NCBI GenBank assembly: GCA_045603405.1
Contig: JAZUMA010000015.1
Span: 54,933 to 118,932 of the forward strand
Source of the DNA: Alphaproteobacteria bacterium
Lineage (GTDB): Bacteria; Pseudomonadota; Alphaproteobacteria; RF32; CAG-239
Direction: 5' to 3'
Length of the DNA stretch: 64,000 nt
Position numbers and translations under genes: made by a program. Position 1 is the first letter of the stretch. The number at the start of each line of letters is the position of its first letter. Below the pieces are notes generated by a model that did not search any database, had not been told where the DNA came from, and worked only from the letters and a program-made list of their open reading frames with translations. Shown piece by piece: positions 5,603 through 61,328 of this stretch.

Positions 5603-6063
5603 TTTAACACTTTTCCTATAACTAAACGGCAAAAAATCCCATCATGGAACCTGCCATCTAAAAAATTACTGCAAACTTTTGCAACACTCAGTCCGCATTT
5701 ATGGGTTATATTTAATTCACAAGAAACCTTATCCCATCAGAAGCCACAACTTTTATAATAAGTTCAACCTCTTAGAGAAATATTAAAGATTCCTTAATTT
5801 TTGTTGCTGGGCGTTTTTAACATTTAAATTTTATAATTGCAAGCAAAAAATACACAAAAAATGAAATTTTAAATCTTTTTAAAACCCTTCTGCCGATTCA
5901 CTTTGAGTCACATAGACAAAAAACAAGAAATCACTATTAAATACGACATTACAAACCGATATATTACAGATACAAAAAAAACTTTGAATTATGCAAAACA
6001 AAGAACCATTGCCAACAATAATGTTAACAATGGTTCTTAAGTTTAAGATTAATCACCATAATC

Positions 6064-6231
6064 TTAACATACATCGCAATAACCGCCATCACAGCCATCA
6101 CAGCAATCACCGCAATCATCGTCATCGTCATCATCATCATCGTCTTTGTCTACCACCATATAAAGTGCAACAGCAACACCCACTAAAATACCAACGACAA
6201 TTCCAATTCCTAAAAATAATAACTGATCCAT
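6064..6231 (-). CDS. candidate 55-aa micro-protein: one TM helix, then poly-Asp tract and Cys-rich tail (MDQLLFLGIGIVVGILVGVAVALYMVVDKD10CGDCCDGCDGGYCDVC)
   Basis: Hand-translated minus-strand ORF not in the supplied track (<60 aa); clean hydrophobic helix followed by (GAT/GAC)n-encoded Asp run and CxxCCxxCxxxxCxxC; weak SD; opposite strand gives a low-complexity His-rich ORF (5991-6251). Confidence 0.3.
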   Translation of the reverse strand: MDQLLFLGIGIVVGILVGVAVALYMVVDKDDDDDDDDDDCGDCCDGCDGGYCDVC

Positions 6232-48266: not shown

Positions 48267-48953
48267 ATGAGAGTTTTATTGATTGAAGACGATTACGCAG
48301 TCTCCCAAAGCGTTGAAACAATCTTAAAAAAAGAAGGCATGGTCGTAGATACCACAGATGACGGCGAAGACGGATTAGATTGCGGAAAATTATATGATTA
48401 TGACATCATCATCTTAGATTTAAATCTACCTGGTATGAATGGTTATGAAGTATTAAAGAGTTTACGCAATGCCAAAATTTCCACCCCTGTCTTAATTTTG
48501 TCAGGTTTATACGAACCGGATAAAAAGGTTAAAGGTTTGGGCTATGGCGCAGATGATTATTTAACAAAACCATTTAACAAAGAAGAATTGTTAGCGCGTA
48601 TTCAAGCCATTGTTCGTCGTTCCAAAGGTCATTCCAATTCTGTTATTCAAACCGGTCTCGTTGCTGTTAATTTGGATACACAAACTGTTTCCGTCGCCGG
48701 TAAAGATTTACACTTAACCGGTAAAGAATACGGCATTATGGAATTGTTATCATTGCGCAAAGGTTCAACTTTGAATAAAGAGCAATTCTTAAATCACCTC
48801 TATGGTGGTATTGATGAACCGGAATTAAAAATTATTGACGTGTTTATCTGTAAACTCCGTAAAAAACTGGAAAAAGCTTCCGGCGGTAAAAACTATATTG
48901 AAACTGTTTGGGGCAGAGGCTATATCTTAAAAGACCCTGACGAACACAAATAA
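48267..48953 (+). CDS. ctrA: cell-cycle response regulator CtrA (OmpR family)
   Basis: 228 aa; MRVLLIEDD...[28 protein letters not shown]...[51 protein letters not shown] is near-identical in pattern to alphaproteobacterial CtrA. Confidence 0.85.
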
Positions 48954-55609: not shown

Positions 55610-55969
55610 ATGGAGCATAAAATGAACATCAAAGCAGATGAAAAACTATTAAAATTGATAGAAAAGACTTTAGATGACAACAAAGCCGAAAACATTGTCA
55701 CCATAGATTTAAAAGGCAAAACATCTATTGCTAATTTTATGGTTATCGCCAGTGGCACATCCAACCGTCATGTTGCCTCTCTTGCTGATAAAGTAAAGTC
55801 TGAATTAAAGAAAAATGGTTACGTATCTTCTTCAGAAGGTGAAGAAAAAGCCAACTGGGTTTTAATAGATGCCTTTGATGTTATAGTACACATTTTCTGC
55901 CCGGAAGTCCGTGATTTTTACAATTTGGAAAAAATGTGGAATTCCGTTGCCGAACTGCGCAAGAATTAA
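55610..55969 (+). CDS. rsfS: ribosomal silencing factor RsfS (Iojap)
   Basis: 119 aa; DLKGKTSIANFMVIASGTSNRHVASLADKV. Confidence 0.9.
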   Translation: MEHKMNIKADEKLLKLIEKTLDDNKAENIVTIDLKGKTSIANFMVIASGTSNRHVASLADKVKSELKKNGYVSSSEGEEKANWVLIDAFDVIVHIFCPEVRDFYNLEKMWNSVAELRKN

Positions 55970-56165
55970 TTTCCCCCTTTACCTTGAATCAACTTATAAT
56001 ACCTAGAGGAAATCTTTTTTCTCTTGCTTTTTGCCAAATTTTTAATTATAAATTGTGCATGCCAGCTATTTATTAATACTGGCATTGAGTACCTGTTTGG
56101 GTGCAAGAGAGCTGTCGTAAGCTCAATATTGGTATCGGTGTTAGGGATATAACATCGTCATTTTA

Positions 56166-56338
56166 TCAGCTGTTCATAACAGCTGACAATAGATATATCC
56201 CCGATTCATAACAATATGGTCGGGGAGCTTTTAGCGTATGTCCAAGAACTGTATGAAGATACTGTTTAAAAGGCTAAGAGAGTCATTTATACCAATATGA
56301 TTTACGAACTCTCCGACCACCTTTCATAACAGGGTGGT
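56166..56338 (+). promoter_or_regulatory. three stem-loops each displaying TTCATAAC(A) in the loop, in the 380-bp leader/intergenic region upstream of the OMP gene
   Basis: H1 tcagctg-TTCATAA-cagctga (56166-56186); H2 tccccga-TTCATAACAatatgg-tcgggga (56198-56226) followed by gcttttag; H3 accacc-tTTCATAACAg-ggtggt (56316-56338) followed by ttttaacttttt, 12 nt before RBS. Confidence 0.4.
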
Positions 56339-56364
56339 TTTAACTTTTTATGGAGAGTTTTATA

Positions 56365-56991
56365 ATGAAAAAGACTTTTTTATTGGCAGGAGTTGCCGCT
56401 TCATTGTTTGCTTTCAATGCAAACGCTTTTGATTTTCAGCAATACATTTCTGGAAAACTAACATATAGCGATATGTCTAATGATGTTAAGATAAAAGACT
56501 TCGACGGAGGTTCAGATAAAACAAATGTTGATGATAAAGTATGGGGAAGCAATTTTGCCTATGGTATAAAAAATAATGCCTTAAGAACAGAATTAGAATT
56601 GAACATTAACGATAAAGCAAAAAAGAGTCAGTTTCATGATGGAACAAATGAAAAAAGAGAATTAGAAAATAATTCAATTATGCTAAATGCATATTATGAC
56701 ATAAATACAGGAACTAAATTTACTCCGTATATTGGAGTAGGCATTGGTATGGCTAGATTAAAAGCAACATATTCTGATAATACGGGTGCAAACATCAGCA
56801 AACACAAAAATAATGTTGTTTGGCAATTAGGTGCAGGTATATCTTATACATTAACTGATAATACAGCTCTTGATTTAGGATATCGATATACCGATTCAGG
56901 AGATGTAACATTACATGATCAAGAAGGAAATAAAGCTAAATTTGATTCTCAAGCACATGAAATTTTACTCGGTATCAGATATACATTTTAA
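56365..56991 (+). CDS. outer-membrane beta-barrel protein (OmpA-like/Opacity porin family small OMP)
   Basis: Track ORF trimmed to ATG 56365 (MKKTFLLAGVAASLFAFNANA signal peptide) with GGAGAG SD; alternating amphipathic strands; C-terminal ...GIRYTF with terminal Phe. Confidence 0.6.
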   Translation: MKKTFLLAGVAASLFAFNANAFDFQQYISGKLTYSDMSNDVKIKDFDGGSDKTNVDDKVWGSNFAYGIKNNALRTELELNINDKAKKSQFHDGTNEKRELENNSIMLNAYYDINTGTKFTPYIGVGIGMARLKATYSDNTGANISKHKNNVVWQLGAGISYTLTDNTALDLGYRYTDSGDVTLHDQEGNKAKFDSQAHEILLGIRYTF

Positions 56992-57015
56992 CGTAAATAT
57001 ATAAACTATCGCTTA

Positions 57016-57052
57016 AACATCTAGGAGTTTTTTTAATCTCCTAGATGTTTTA
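57016..57052 (+). terminator. terminator hairpin after OMP gene (12-bp stem)
   Basis: aacatctaggag-ttttttta-atctcctagatgtt then tttac. Confidence 0.5.
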
Positions 57053-57150
57053 CAAAAAATATAGCACTTTCTCACACAAATAAATCTTGAACTAAAGAAA
57101 AAAGTTCTTGATTTGCGTAAAGAAATGTTTTATAAGCATTTTAGCTTGAT

Positions 57151-57191
57151 AGGGGTATAGCTCAGTTGGTAGAGCATCGGTCTCCAAAACC
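57151..57191 (+). pseudogene. tRNA-Trp (CCA) 5' fragment: acceptor 5' strand, D-arm, anticodon stem-loop; no T-arm/3' half (probable att-site remnant)
   Basis: AGGGGTA TA GCTC AGTTGGTA GAGC A TCGGT CTCCAAA ACC then caaaatagaattttcc, which is not tRNA-like; typical Trp tRNA matches to position ~41 only. Confidence 0.55.
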
Positions 57192-57364
57192 CAAAATAGA
57201 ATTTTCCAAGTATTTAAATTTCCACATTTTTTATTGATTTTTCAAACAGTTTAAGCAAAAAAAATTTTTTGCCTAGCGTACCTTGGCGTACCTAGGTATT
57301 CTCGATTTTCCGAACCGTTTCGGTATACTTTAGGTATCAGATAAACCGAAACGGAGATTTTGAA

Positions 57365-58492
57365 ATGGTAAAAAGTTTTCCTGGAGTGCGAACAGCAAAT
57401 CGCATAAGAAATGGTAGAAAAGATATTTACTTTTCTATTCGCTATACCAAAAACGGTAAGCAATGTGAAGAAGGCATCGGTTATAAATCAGACGGATTTA
57501 CAGCAGAAAAAACCTACGAAATTTTAAAAGAATTAAAACAAGATATAAAAGCAGGTAAAGTATCTTCTTTACGCGACAAAAACAACCAACGCGAACAAGA
57601 AAGAATTGCTAATGAGGCGGCAAATATGACGTTCTCAGAGCTTTTTGAAGAATATTATCAGCCGCATATTCAAAATAAAGACAAAAAATCAACATATGAC
57701 AGAGAAGTTAACCTATATAAAGTATGGCTTAGACCTTTTTTGGGAGATGTTAGGTTAAACCTCATTAGCCTCAAAAGCCTCACTAGGTTAATTCAAGCTA
57801 TGGATAAAAAACATTTATCTAATCGTACAAAACGCTATGCTATAGCACTAACGCGACAAGTTCTTAATTTTGCAATTAAATATGAGCTATTTGCAGGGGA
57901 AAATCCGGCAGCAAGATTTGACGAGCTGAAAAAGGAAGATAATCAACGTGTAAAGTTTTTAAGCGAAGAAGATTTAAACAATCTTTTAGCAGAAATAAAG
58001 AAACATAGCTATCAAGTTTATGTAATGGCACTTATTTCCGCCGATTGCGGACTACGCGCCGGAGAAATTTTCAGACTAACTTGGGCTGATGTAAGCCTAG
58101 AAGAAAAAATGCTGTTTTTGCGTGATACAAAAAATGGCAAGAATCGTTATGCCTATATGACAGACCGTGTTTTTGATGAACTTTCAAAATTAAAACAGCA
58201 TGAAGGCAATGAATTAGTCTTTCAAAGCAGAGAGGGAAAGAAAATAGAACATGTTTCACGCACTTTTGAACGTGCAGTCAAAGCATTGGGATTAAATAAA
58301 GGTGTTACAGACCGCAGGCAAAAAGTAGTTTTTCATTCTTTAAGGCACACATTTGCCAGTCGGTTAGTGCAAAAACGCGTTTCACTTTACGAAGTCAAAG
58401 AACTGTTAGGACATTCCGATATTGCAATGACTCAACGCTATTCACACTTGGCAAATGAAACGCTACGAGAGGCTGTTTCTAAGCTTAATTAG
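57365..58492 (+). CDS. int: tyrosine-type site-specific recombinase/phage integrase
   Basis: 375 aa; C-terminal catalytic region HSLRHTFASRLVQKRVSLYEVKELLGHSDIAMTQRYSHL (R..HxxR...Y). Confidence 0.85.
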   Translation: MVKSFPGVRTANRIRNGRKDIYFSIRYTKNGKQCEEGIGYKSDGFTAEKTYEILKELKQDIKAGKVSSLRDKNNQREQERIANEAANMTFSELFEEYYQPHIQNKDKKSTYDREVNLYKVWLRPFLGDVRLNLISLKSLTRLIQAMDKKHLSNRTKRYAIALTRQVLNFAIKYELFAGENPAARFDELKKEDNQRVKFLSEEDLNNLLAEIKKHSYQVYVMALISADCGLRAGEIFRLTWADVSLEEKMLFLRDTKNGKNRYAYMTDRVFDELSKLKQHEGNELVFQSREGKKIEHVSRTFERAVKALGLNKGVTDRRQKVVFHSLRHTFASRLVQKRVSLYEVKELLGHSDIAMTQRYSHLANETLREAVSKLN

Positions 58493-58986: not shown

Positions 58987-61328
58987 AACTAAAAAACATT
59001 TTAATTGAACAAATGGAGCGAGAGGCGCAAGCCTCTCCACTCCCTCCGAGAGAAGATGTTAGCGCATCTGCTCTCAATAACCAAAATGTTTGCAATATCA
59101 ACGAAGCGACCAACTTTTTGGATATTGCTACATTTTACGCACAACGCAATATTAAAACCTTTCCGGTAAAAAAGCAAGGCAAATCACCGCTTTGCCCGCA
59201 TGGTTTTAATGACGCAACCGCTGATAAAGTCGTATTGCAGGAATGGAATAAGCAATTTCCAGATTGCAATATAGGCATTCCGACCGGAGCAATCAATAAT
59301 ATCTTTGTTGTTGATGTAGATGGTGAAAGCGGCGCAAAATCTTTAGCTGAGTTTGAAAATAAATATGGTAAACTCAAAGCCCCGACCGTTAGCACAGGAA
59401 AAGGTAAGCATTTGTATTTCAAAATGCCGGAATGGGTAGAAATCAAATGCAGTACGAGTAAAATAGCTCCGCATATTGATATACGCGGTAATGGAGGCTA
59501 TGTTGTAGCACCACCATCTATTCACGAAAACGGTAATAAATATACTTGGGTTAATTTTGACTTTAGTCAAGATTTTCCAACTGCGCCAGAATGGTTGATT
59601 GATTTAATTAACAATCCCGAAAAAACAGATATTGATATGTTGCTTGATGAAATAGCCAACGCTCCTGAGGGAACACGGAACGATAGATTGTTAAGTAATA
59701 CTATCAAAATTTGTAATAGTGCAGATAGACAATTTCGCGATATTTCCGAAATCAAAGAAGATGTTGTAAATGCCGCGCTTGAATCAGGATTAACAAAAGC
59801 AGAGACAGTAAAAACAGTTAGCAATGCTATCAAGTTTTCAGAGGCTCACAGCGATAATCAAGCAGACACAGAGCCGGATATGGATATCCTTAAAGCTAAG
59901 GACCTATTGCCGGCTCCACAGCTTGATACAAGCATCTTTAAAAGCTTAGAGCCGTGGGTAGTGCAAACGGCACAAAATACTAATGCGCCGGTTGACTATG
60001 TCGCATTTTCATTGCTAGCCGGCGCAGCAGGTGTTATTGGTTTGTCGCGCTCTGTTTCACCTTGGGCAGAATGGATAGAACCATGCTGTTTATGGATTGG
60101 TGCTGTCGGAGAGCCAAGCTCCGGCAAAACACCGGCAACTACTCCTATTCGGCGTATTCTGAATCAAATTGAGGAAGACCATAAAGAGCCTTATTTTGCA
60201 AAACTAGCAGAATGGAAACGTACTAGAGAAGTTGCTAAGCAACGCAAAAAAGAATGGGAAGAAAAGGTCAAAGAAAATCCCGATACTGCAAGCAATTTTC
60301 CAAATACCGCTATTATTCCGGCAAAACCGCAAACATATCGCTTTGTTTACGGTGATACTACGCAAGAGGCAATTACCAAGGATATGGAACGCAACATAAA
60401 AGGCGCTATTCTTTTCCGTGACGAATTGTCAGCGTGGATTTGTGGTATGAATCGCTATAATAGCGGCAGTTCCGAGCGCGGTTTTTGGCTTGAGGCTTTT
60501 AACGGCCACAAGTTTGTATGCGATCGCGTTAAATATGACGACGACCGCTTAGAAATTAAAAATCTATTGGTATCGGTGTTCGGTACTATACAGCCTCAAA
60601 GGCTCGTAGACACGGTTTTTGATGACCGCGGCGACGGCTTCCTTGCCCGTTTTCTTTGGGTGTATCCAGCGGTTATACCGCCTGCTATCCCGCAAAATAT
60701 TGCTTTACCGGACACGGCTCTGAAAGCATTGCAAAAACTGGACACTTTATTAGATCCATATGCAGATTTTGCAGAAGAACAGAAAAAATGCTTGCAATTA
60801 AGTATAAAAGCAAAAGATGTTTTTAGCACTTGGTATATTGAACATTTAACCAGAACCCAGCAGGAAGAAAGCAATATCAAATATTTTCTTGGCAAAGGAC
60901 AAGGTTATGTCCTTAGGCTTGCGTTACTTTTAGAGCTTTTGTGGTGGAGTAATTCGGAATTTACTGAGCCGACAGAAGTCAGCGAAGACGCGGTCAAGGC
61001 AGCTATAAATCTTTACGATACCTATTTATTACCTATGTGTGAACGTGTTTATTATATGTATTATAGTCCGGTATATAATATTGAAGCACGGGCATTGGCT
61101 CGATGGATTATCGAAAATAAATCTGAAAGCTTTATTTTACGTGATGTTTATAACAATGGCACAGTAAAATATCTGCGCCGTAAGGAGCCGACAGAAACTG
61201 CCGCTAAAAAATTGGTGGAGCTGAATTGGCTACGTTATGAATGCACGCGCGCCGGAACAACCAAAGGCAAACGCCGGACAACCTACTATGTAAATCCCGA
61301 AGTCTACACTTTGGCGGAAAATTATTAG
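58983..61328 (+). CDS. primase-helicase: N-terminal bifunctional Prim-Pol domain + C-terminal P-loop NTPase (D5/DUF3987-like)
   Basis: 781 aa; Prim-Pol region FPVKKQGKSPLCPHGFNDAT...IGIPTG..NNIFVVDVDGESG...IDIRGNGGYVVAPPSIHENGNKYTW; P-loop GAVGEPSSGKT; GGAGG SD. Confidence 0.7.
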   Translation: MKLKNILIEQMEREAQASPLPPREDVSASALNNQNVCNINEATNFLDIATFYAQRNIKTFPVKKQGKSPLCPHGFNDATADKVVLQEWNKQFPDCNIGIPTGAINNIFVVDVDGESGAKSLAEFENKYGKLKAPTVSTGKGKHLYFKMPEWVEIKCSTSKIAPHIDIRGNGGYVVAPPSIHENGNKYTWVNFDFSQDFPTAPEWLIDLINNPEKTDIDMLLDEIANAPEGTRNDRLLSNTIKICNSADRQFRDISEIKEDVVNAALESGLTKAETVKTVSNAIKFSEAHSDNQADTEPDMDILKAKDLLPAPQLDTSIFKSLEPWVVQTAQNTNAPVDYVAFSLLAGAAGVIGLSRSVSPWAEWIEPCCLWIGAVGEPSSGKTPATTPIRRILNQIEEDHKEPYFAKLAEWKRTREVAKQRKKEWEEKVKENPDTASNFPNTAIIPAKPQTYRFVYGDTTQEAITKDMERNIKGAILFRDELSAWICGMNRYNSGSSERGFWLEAFNGHKFVCDRVKYDDDRLEIKNLLVSVFGTIQPQRLVDTVFDDRGDGFLARFLWVYPAVIPPAIPQNIALPDTALKALQKLDTLLDPYADFAEEQKKCLQLSIKAKDVFSTWYIEHLTRTQQEESNIKYFLGKGQGYVLRLALLLELLWWSNSEFTEPTEVSEDAVKAAINLYDTYLLPMCERVYYMYYSPVYNIEARALARWIIENKSESFILRDVYNNGTVKYLRRKEPTETAAKKLVELNWLRYECTRAGTTKGKRRTTYYVNPEVYTLAENY

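Follow-up and report, generated by a model that had tools for sequence, protein, structure and literature searches.

A covarying leader RNA and probable terminator/antiterminator switch upstream of an outer membrane protein gene in gut Alphaproteobacteria

Introduction

Why should three neighbouring hairpins in one intergenic spacer carry the same nine-nucleotide sequence? The question arises in a 64,000-nucleotide (nt) stretch of DNA from an Alphaproteobacteria bacterium (GenBank assembly GCA_045603405.1, contig JAZUMA010000015.1, positions 54,933 to 118,932 of the forward strand), which we call the window and in whose coordinates all positions are given. The hairpins lie in the spacer between rsfS and a porin-like outer membrane protein (OMP) gene. 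A sequence-only reading of this stretch had suggested that the shared loop was a recognition motif for an RNA-binding protein or part of a structured leader or attenuator controlling the OMP gene, and had offered a hairpin-recognized DNA site or a small RNA (sRNA) as further possibilities. Here we describe a comparative analysis in which positions 56059–56349 emerge as what is likely a single cis-acting leader RNA of an uncatalogued family, with a terminator/antiterminator switch before the OMP gene. The shared sequence TTCATAACA is a feature of this lineage only, and it neither defines nor operates the family.

Results

The repeated sequence and its three hairpins

The 9-mer TTCATAACA starts at 56173, 56205 and 56323, each time on the + strand, so that all three copies fall within 160 nt of the rsfS–OMP spacer (55970–56364). 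Inverted repeats flank every spacer copy (TCAGCTG/CAGCTGA, TCCCCGA/TCGGGGA and GACCACC(T)/(G)GGTGGTT). The window holds five copies on both strands against 1.26 expected, and the three apical regions have 9 nt in common, compared with at most 6 nt in any of 200,000 composition-preserving shuffles. Because the shuffles never reach 9 nt and the count exceeds expectation, the clustering and identity of the copies are real and not due to chance. The whole spacer also folds far better than its shuffles (z = −6.7).

The copies and their inverted repeats are therefore as first reported, but their presentation is not uniform: the motif lies entirely in the loop only in hairpin 3. The stem of hairpin 1 can be extended to 9 base pairs (bp) around a CAU triloop, and in hairpin 2 the motif's CAUA is paired with UAUG, CAUAG/CUAUG being the family-typical form. 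Two hairpins had been said to be followed by T-tracts. That of hairpin 3 is a genuine U-tract, whereas the run that follows hairpin 2, GCTTTTAGC, forms the 5′ strand of the helix P5 described below (99% paired, 8/8 pairs covarying) and not a terminator tail. Hairpin 3 scores as an intrinsic terminator, and its end does lie 12 nt before the ribosome-binding site GGAGAG. As for similar hairpins elsewhere, none of the seven remaining TTCATAAC copies in the 64-kb window sits in a comparable hairpin loop.

The spacer encodes a member of an uncatalogued RNA family

A sensitive blastn search with 55970–57364 against a phage collection returned MT835859.1, which matches 56193–56341 at 74.5% identity. 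This sequence comes from human faeces, and its match is flanked by secB and an XRE gene. It shares with the window the stems of hairpins 2 and 3 and their flanks, but not the loops. It is labelled 'Bacteriophage sp.', yet it carries chromosomal genes, among them those for SecB and an MltA-like protein, and is probably a mis-binned bacterial scaffold. Two blocks identical in the two sequences, GGTCGGGGAG and CTCCGACCACC, served as a gapped search pattern. It retrieved three contigs from IMG/VR and over 120 from metagenomes, the latter chiefly of human or ruminant gut; about 60% of these metagenome contigs are true relatives and the remainder are G+C-rich chance matches. A profile search over the collected loci added diverged copies (L010, L206, L148, L198 and second paralogues of the L099 type), the L010 copy lying near rsfS–rlmH in an alphaproteobacterial metagenome-assembled genome (MAG). 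In this way, over 60 family sequences were identified in gut metagenomes of humans and animals.

A leave-one-out nhmmer profile (37 sequences, window excluded) matched the window once, at 56063–56348, with 196.7 bits and an E value of 1.3e-59; the nearest member, L112, is 75% identical to the window. All family-wide counts below refer to alignment A2, which comprises 38 non-redundant members, window included. With one profile match in 64 kb and no other TTCATAAC-tipped hairpin, the element does not behave as a dispersed repeat of the repetitive extragenic palindrome or miniature inverted-repeat transposable element kind.

Scanning the interval with Rfam/Infernal, as the sequence-only reading had proposed, yielded no catalogued family at or above its gathering threshold. 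Rfam 15 reported two tRNAs only across the whole window, and in 55900–56450 at E ≤ 10 it gave chance matches far below gathering, such as mir-875 (28.7 versus 84 bits). Ten homologous loci gave tRNAs only; at E ≤ 1, the sole matches in L198 and L201 were to isrD, below threshold and confined to the terminator. A literature search with the conserved blocks as text, together with keywords, returned nothing relevant. We read the leader RNA as an uncatalogued family of a known mechanistic kind, the riboswitch-like attenuator.

Several loci carry tandem full and partial leader copies (L206, 7074–7905; L148, 1911–2464; L198, minus strand, 945–41). L206 has two 'core only' copies of about 90 nt, running from segment 2 through P5 to segment 3 and devoid of a terminator. 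In L198, a 75-nt 3′ fragment comes directly after the stop of an open reading frame (ORF) and precedes the full copy by 800 nt, an arrangement like an att-type duplication.

Covariation defines a junction, a pseudoknot and eleven helices

We built a structure of 71 pairs by hand; across the family these pairs are 91.8% paired, compared with 36–47% when the partners are slid. Forty-four of the 71 pairs change on both sides, and none of 500 shuffles reaches the observed values. In all, eleven helices have covariation support, including a multi-way junction and a pseudoknot (Table 1). The long-range junction helix J changes on both sides at nine of its ten pairs, with 2–20 sequences per pair and 10–20 for the six inner ones; the window has AUAUUGGUAU/AUACCAAUAU where L093 has CAUUUCGCA/UGCGAAAUG. 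In the pseudoknot, six of seven pairs covary (UUCAUC:GAUGAA, UUCAAC:GUUGAA, UCGAAA:UUUCGA and UGAGAA:UUCUCA, for example), and at least five Watson–Crick pairs are present in 100% of members versus 4% of cross-type controls. The window copy can form P2–P5, J, the pseudoknot, H2 and T.

Table 1. Features of the leader RNA and its target gene (window coordinates)
Feature	Coordinates	Strand	Description
Putative sigma-70-type promoter	56024–56052	+	−35 TTGCTT (56024–56029), 17-nt spacer, −10 TATAAA (56047–56052); read by eye
Whole leader RNA, ~290 nt	56059–56349	+	Profile match 56063–56348; alignment A2
P1 hairpin	56059–56085	+	ATGCCAG...CTGGCAT from the fold; 5/6 pairs change on both sides in the family; register of the window's P1 is shifted in A2
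P2 hairpin	56089–56104	+	GUACC/GGUGC; 97.9% of cells paired, 2 pairs covary
P3 hairpin	56109–56124	+	Stem 96% paired; loop GUCGUAA (56114–56120) in pseudoknot
J, 5′ strand	56126–56135	+	Long-range junction helix; pairs with 56289–56298
P4 hairpin	56136–56157	+	CGGUGUU/AACAUCG, conserved loop AGGGAUAU; 95% paired, 3 pairs covary
H1 (hairpin 1)	56162–56190	+	Peripheral, variable; 10/11 pairs covary; motif copy 1 (56173–56181)
H2 (hairpin 2)	56198–56226	+	Putative anti-antiterminator; 96% paired, nearly invariant; motif copy 2 (56205–56213) in apical extension
Segment 2, GGUCGGGGAG	56218–56227	+	3′ strand of H2; common to H2 and antiterminator
P5/P5a arm	56228–56280	+	Conserved internal loop GUAUGUYCAG/UUAAAG; P5 8/8 pairs covary, 99% paired; P5a 4/5 covary
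J, 3′ strand	56289–56298	+	Pairs with 56126–56135
Linker UUACGAA	56302–56308	+	3′ strand of pseudoknot with P3 loop; directly adjoins segment 3
Segment 3, CUCUCCGACC	56309–56318	+	Pairs with segment 2 or, via GACC..., with segment 4
T (hairpin 3), intrinsic terminator	56315–56349	+	GACCACCU/GGGUGGUU; stem 56315–56339, U-tract to 56349; loop is motif copy 3 (56323–56331)
OMP gene and Shine–Dalgarno (SD) sequence	56352–56991	+	SD GGAGAG (56352–56357), ATG 56365; from ORF list

Promoter signals bound the RNA on its 5′ side. The boxes in the window are our own reading and were not picked by a promoter scan; they predict a transcription start near 56059. A match to TTGNNN-N16-17-TANNNT occurs just upstream of the RNA in 30 of the 38 homologues, at an identical offset in 28. 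Conserved G.U pairs exist on the + strand only, and the element therefore functions as RNA, not as a DNA hairpin.

The proposal of a conserved loop on variable stems, hence a recognition motif, runs opposite to the pattern across the 38 homologues: the stems of H2 and hairpin 3 are nearly invariant, H1 covaries and the loops differ. The T stem is 98% paired and invariant in A2, and its loop is free to vary across the family. In many members, the apical part of H2 reads GAUUCAUAG...CUAUGGUC.

Two further candidates were examined and rejected. The 10-bp inverted repeat at 56126/56289, considered as an inverton, is the covarying RNA helix J and not a recombination site. For a leader peptide, the AUG after an SD-like GGGGAG opens ORFs of 2–20 codons that show no conservation. 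Separately, the P5 internal loop (GUAUGU) contains a near-invariant AUG (A2 columns 223–225; 56238–56240), which is AUA in the L170 and L211 lineages and opens no conserved ORF.

Segment 2 has two alternative partners

Four segments at the 3′ side of the RNA can pair in two ways. UCCCCGA of segment 1 pairs with UCGGGGA of segment 2 to give H2, and segment 2 is also complementary to segment 3 over 10 bp (56218–56227 with 56309–56318). Segment 3 in turn overlaps the 5′ strand of the terminator. RNAalifold picked the 2:3 helix unprompted; this helix cannot covary in A2, as the search pattern fixed both blocks.

Diverged paralogues are more informative. The canonical segments 1, 2 and 3 are UCCCCGA, GGUCGGGGAG and CUCUCCGACC; in L152 and in L099 copy 2 they are UCCCCGG, GGCCGGGGAG and CUCCCCGGCC, and L206 copy A has no segment 1 and carries GCCGGGGAG and CUCCCCGGC. 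One nucleotide of segment 2 co-changes with both alternative partners in these paralogues, and the terminator stem of L010 covaries to ACCGCU/AGCGGU. Because segment 2 changes together with segments 1 and 3, the three-way compensatory changes are, at the level of sequence, the signature of mutually exclusive helices, namely 1:2 plus 3:4 versus 2:3. An intrinsic terminator thus stands between leader and coding sequence, and the antiterminator has evolutionary support from a few informative copies. These features support the proposal of a structured leader or attenuator controlling the OMP gene: the RNA runs from promoter to terminator, covaries strongly and can pair as either a terminator or an antiterminator.

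The minimum-free-energy fold of the window copy (−101.9 kcal/mol) is the terminator state, and forcing the antiterminator gives −86.6 kcal/mol; the default would therefore be 'off', and read-through would need an input. The CUCUCC of segment 3 is complementary to the OMP SD GGAGAG, and this pairing is present in the minimum-free-energy fold of the spacer.

These features can be assembled into a mechanism. Transcribed from its own promoter, the leader would fold into P1, P2 and P3, followed by a J-closed multi-way junction carrying P4, H1, H2 and P5/P5a, with the pseudoknot between P3 loop and linker just upstream of the 3′ end. Segment 1 (UCCCCGA) and segment 2 (GGUCGGGGAG) would form hairpin 2, and segment 3 (CUCUCCGACCACC) would pair either with segment 2, as the antiterminator, or with segment 4 (GGUGGUU plus the U-tract), as hairpin 3, the terminator. 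The inferred default is formation of hairpin 2 and the terminator, with transcription ending ahead of the OMP gene; a signal that freed segment 2 or stabilized the 2:3 helix would let RNA polymerase read into it. The leader RNA thereby probably decides whether the downstream OMP gene is transcribed. Because the pseudoknot strand abuts segment 3, the 2:3 helix could stack on the pseudoknot to make a single 17-bp helix. The off state would leave CUCUCC single-stranded, which may mask the OMP SD and add a second, translational layer of control.

Downstream genes favour a cis-acting leader

In essentially every member, the terminator is followed by an SD and a gene in the same orientation. In most distinct contexts, an SD and a co-oriented ORF start lie about 36–60 nt past segment 3; a few are further away, up to +155. 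L130 is a truncated pseudogene, and in L170 the first ORF begins at +449. The products are diverse: beta-barrel OMPs, PilS/bundlin-type pilins, large autotransporter/PMP-like proteins, lipoproteins and a secreted SNase; DUF805 and other membrane proteins, GT2 glycosyltransferases, epimerases and XRE regulators; and a YspA-SLOG protein, an EcoRI-like methyltransferase and a RadC-like protein. About 70% of the downstream genes encode secreted or envelope proteins. Neither flank of the leader is syntenic among lineages. Loci of the L099 type contain two paralogous leaders, each ahead of its own small helix-turn-helix (HTH) gene.

That the spacer could encode an sRNA had also been suggested, and the region is indeed a single, strongly covarying RNA from promoter to terminator. 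Such an RNA could act in trans on its own: ending at the terminator, it would use CUCUCC as an anti-SD seed on other mRNAs, with the downstream gene a mere read-through neighbour. Its own promoter and strong terminator, the terminated form as the minimum-free-energy state, an invariant C/U-rich block adjoining the terminator and the loss of synteny on either flank would all suit this account, and riboswitch-terminated RNAs with trans action are known. We nevertheless consider it unlikely. A co-oriented gene preceded by an SD is present in every one of about 30 independent contexts, where roughly half would be expected for an independent gene, and in most of them the SD and gene lie 10–30 nt past the U-tract. 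Moreover, segments 1, 2 and 3 covary three-way, which implies selection for exclusive helices including the 5′ strand of the terminator, and a 290-nt, 11-helix fold far exceeds the needs of a seed-bearing sRNA. The co-oriented downstream genes, together with the L099 paralogous leaders each before its own gene, favour a cis-acting leader over an independent sRNA.

In L099, facing diverged leaders (5859–6113, +; 6992–6903, −) with XRE-type HTH genes lie between a Sel1-repeat gene and thrS. The product of the L199 ORF, which starts about 88 nt past its leader, is a PMP/autotransporter-like surface protein, and a eukaryote-like ubiquitin domain lies close to the N terminus of this protein (PF00240, E 1.5e-26).

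The triple 9-mer is confined to one lineage

With the family in hand, the starting observation can be placed. The triple 9-mer occurs in the window only (1 of 38 members): all three tips have 9 nt in common there and at most 4 nt in the 37 others, in none of which do any two tips share more than 6 nt. The H1 loops of relatives differ (UUCGUAACA in L112, UUCAUCGCA in L108, UAUUUGCAC in L096). L112 has UUCGUAACA in H1 and UUCAUAGCA in H2, and window copies 1 and 2 are each one substitution away from these. The window's terminator loop matches H1 over 10 nt, in a loop that is unconstrained elsewhere in the family. Since the motif is restricted to the window and the searches for a partner came out empty, it is either the product of neutral homogenization or a lineage-specific site for some factor.

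Those searches covered both the complement and the duplexes of the motif. Across the window, the complement TGTTATGAA shows no enrichment (42 matches with at most one mismatch, the three sites included, versus 33 expected), and the copies of GTTATGAA at 48442 and 61234 lie within ORFs and not at start codons. When the motif is paired with the linker or with the start of OMP translation, the duplex energy stays within about two standard deviations of background, and the pairing of motif with linker is possible only with an A.C mismatch. We also observed that UUCAUAA in a 7-nt loop resembles the tRNA-Met anticodon loop, a likeness only.

On the neutral account, inherited similarity between H1 and H2 was followed by templated mutation or micro-conversion into the unconstrained terminator loop. 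The H1 and terminator loops vary freely in the family, both precursor sequences are present in L112 and the partner searches were empty, as this account would have it. It also needs two separate events, lacks flanking microhomology to guide a template switch and describes a homogenization seen in no other member. We hold it to be plausible, at somewhat short of even odds.

Alternatively, UUCAUAACA in the three tips could have been selected for recognition by one trans-acting factor, a protein or an RNA with UGUUAUGAA; such a factor would influence the switch, for instance by holding hairpin 2 and the terminator in place. Chance alone is far from explaining the triple identity, and a terminator loop free to vary elsewhere matches hairpin 1 here over 10 nt. 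Loop sequences can matter in this RNA, since in several clades, among them L112 and the L108 clade, the H1 loop is a copy of the P3 loop and complementary to the linker. Against recognition, the motif is absent from 37 of 37 other members, its three copies differ in structural context, a single substitution separates each of copies 1 and 2 from the closest relative, the complement is not enriched and the duplex energies are near background. Selection for a common factor therefore seems doubtful to us.

The locus and the neighbouring mobile element

The window is AT-rich (37% G+C), and the closest Obg proteins, 85% identical, are found in Alphaproteobacteria MAGs; its source is an uncultured gut alphaproteobacterium. 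The gene order is rplU, rpmA, obg, rsfS (55610–55969), the spacer, the OMP gene, a terminator palindrome, the 5′ half of a tRNA-Trp gene, an integrase, a small ORF and a Prim-Pol/DUF3987 gene. The OMP is a 208-residue beta-barrel protein with a signal peptide (Pfam OMP_b-brl, 1.4e-19). Exact-protein look-ups of the OMP, RsfS and P0001 found no entry on record.

In the closest genomes (Obg 85% identical; L001–L004), other genes follow rsfS and the motif is absent. There is consequently no orthologous spacer to compare in these nearest relatives. The leaders of OMP homologues (at most 65% identity; L081–L089) are hairpin-rich and lack this RNA, which is therefore not tied to the OMP family. The closest of these homologues (65% identity; L081, 1563–2715, and L082, 322–1474) adjoins two small resolvase/invertase genes and an integrase, which suggests phase variation or mobility of that OMP locus. 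Near another homologue, whose hairpin-rich leader has no relation to this RNA family (L087, 2100–2330), a tRNA-Ser gene is accompanied by a duplicate of its own 5′ part about 120 nt upstream.

The tRNA-Trp(CCA) fragment occupies 57152–57192 and stops just past the anticodon loop; neither ARAGORN nor Rfam called it. A tyrosine integrase gene (57365–58492) follows 170 nt downstream, and then Prim-Pol/DUF3987. The fragment is probably the left junction of an integrative element, with crossover in the anticodon loop. The hairpin region had been described as lying between rsfS and the mobile-element junction; because the fragment follows the OMP gene in the gene order, the junction lies beyond that gene and outside the spacer. 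A plasmid search returned tRNA-Trp-like matches only. An exact 16-nt repeat, TATTGGTATCGGTGTT, occurs at 56127–56142, in the J and P4 strands of the leader, and at 60565–60580, inside the Prim-Pol gene; it may be chance.

This neighbourhood bears on the idea that the hairpins are DNA-level sites tied to the mobile element, whether recombinase or HUH-nuclease targets, operators or iterons. Hairpin 1 is a near-perfect 21-bp palindrome, the integrase and Prim-Pol element begins 1 kb downstream, the leader and the Prim-Pol gene share the 16-nt repeat and the partial 3′ copies of L198 look like att duplications. None of this fits easily with G.U pairs that are strand-specific, 50 covarying pairs, an architecture of promoter and U-tract terminator, homologues in loci that lack integrases and an element junction at the tRNA-Trp fragment past the OMP gene. 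The RNA evidence rules out integron attC, HUH nick site and iteron readings of the motif. The hairpin-recognized DNA site is thus largely refuted, and we regard DNA-level sites in general as very improbable.

Discussion

Our analysis identifies the rsfS–OMP spacer as the locus of a structured RNA with relatives across gut metagenomes, and a cis-acting terminator/antiterminator leader is the explanation we consider likely. Several points weigh against it. Both the 5′ end of the leader and termination at its 3′ end are predictions, and the downstream genes have no common pathway, a pattern not usually expected of a metabolite riboswitch. In the window, the antiterminator state falls 15 kcal/mol short of the terminator state in stability, so a strong stabilizing factor or a kinetic route would be needed. 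The invariance of segments 2 and 3 in A2 was partly built in by the search pattern, and covariation of the 2:3 helix comes from a handful of paralogues. Tandem and partial copies (L206 and L198) and the lack of synteny at either flank go beyond an attenuator model and mark the locus as a module that is also mobile or prone to recombination. Finally, a terminator/antiterminator leader leaves the triple 9-mer unaccounted for.

Should the proposed leader prove correct, it would represent an abundant, uncatalogued structured regulatory RNA of uncultured gut Alphaproteobacteria, one that precedes genes for the cell surface (porin-like OMPs, type IVb pilins, autotransporter adhesins and lipoproteins) and mobile-element genes. 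A bolder and more tentative idea is that the family forms a new class of large riboswitch-like sensor, in which the ~200-nt junction and pseudoknot read a global signal and turn on surface, adhesion and accessory genes in gut Alphaproteobacteria; lineage-specific loops, such as the triple UUCAUAACA, might adjust the switching or link it to a trans factor. Candidate signals include a second messenger, a tRNA or another macromolecule. The sequence and structure model gives clear mutational predictions for segments 1–4 and the pseudoknot, which makes this RNA a tractable orphan-riboswitch candidate. It also illustrates that identical loops, striking locally, can be a lineage quirk on a far more conserved architecture.

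Other RNAs share parts of this design. Large structured RNAs such as GOLLD, ROOL, OLE, HEARO and raiA were likewise found by comparative analysis, have many covarying helices, often accompany mobile or accessory DNA and have no known ligand or partner. Their models do not detect this RNA, which is smaller (~290 nt), has an explicit expression platform and is consistently fused to a downstream gene. Differing stems with the same tips recall CsrB/RsmZ (GGA loops) and the alphaproteobacterial 'cuckoo' RNAs (CCUCCUCCC loops), but here in one genome only: their loop motif is conserved across species, whereas the loops are the least conserved part of this family and the motif occurs in 1 of 38 members.

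The closest parallels are the leaders of riboswitches and attenuators, including the trp leader, PyrR sites and T-boxes. They too are promoter-proximal structured 5′ leaders with four segments and exclusive helices, the last of which is an intrinsic terminator immediately before the SD of the controlled gene. In contrast to them, this RNA has no Rfam match and no conserved leader peptide, its putative sensor is a ~200-nt multi-way junction with a pseudoknot, and its downstream genes share no pathway. The T-box model (RF00230) finds no match in 55900–56450 even at E ≤ 10; the T-box sequence is absent, and the antiterminator here would be an unbulged 10-bp helix. Like rho-independent terminators at large, hairpin 3 has a G+C-rich stem of 8–9 bp and a U-tract. 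Unlike a simple gene-end terminator, it has its 5′ strand in an invariant 13-nt block with an alternative partner, and for that reason we take it to be a regulated terminator.

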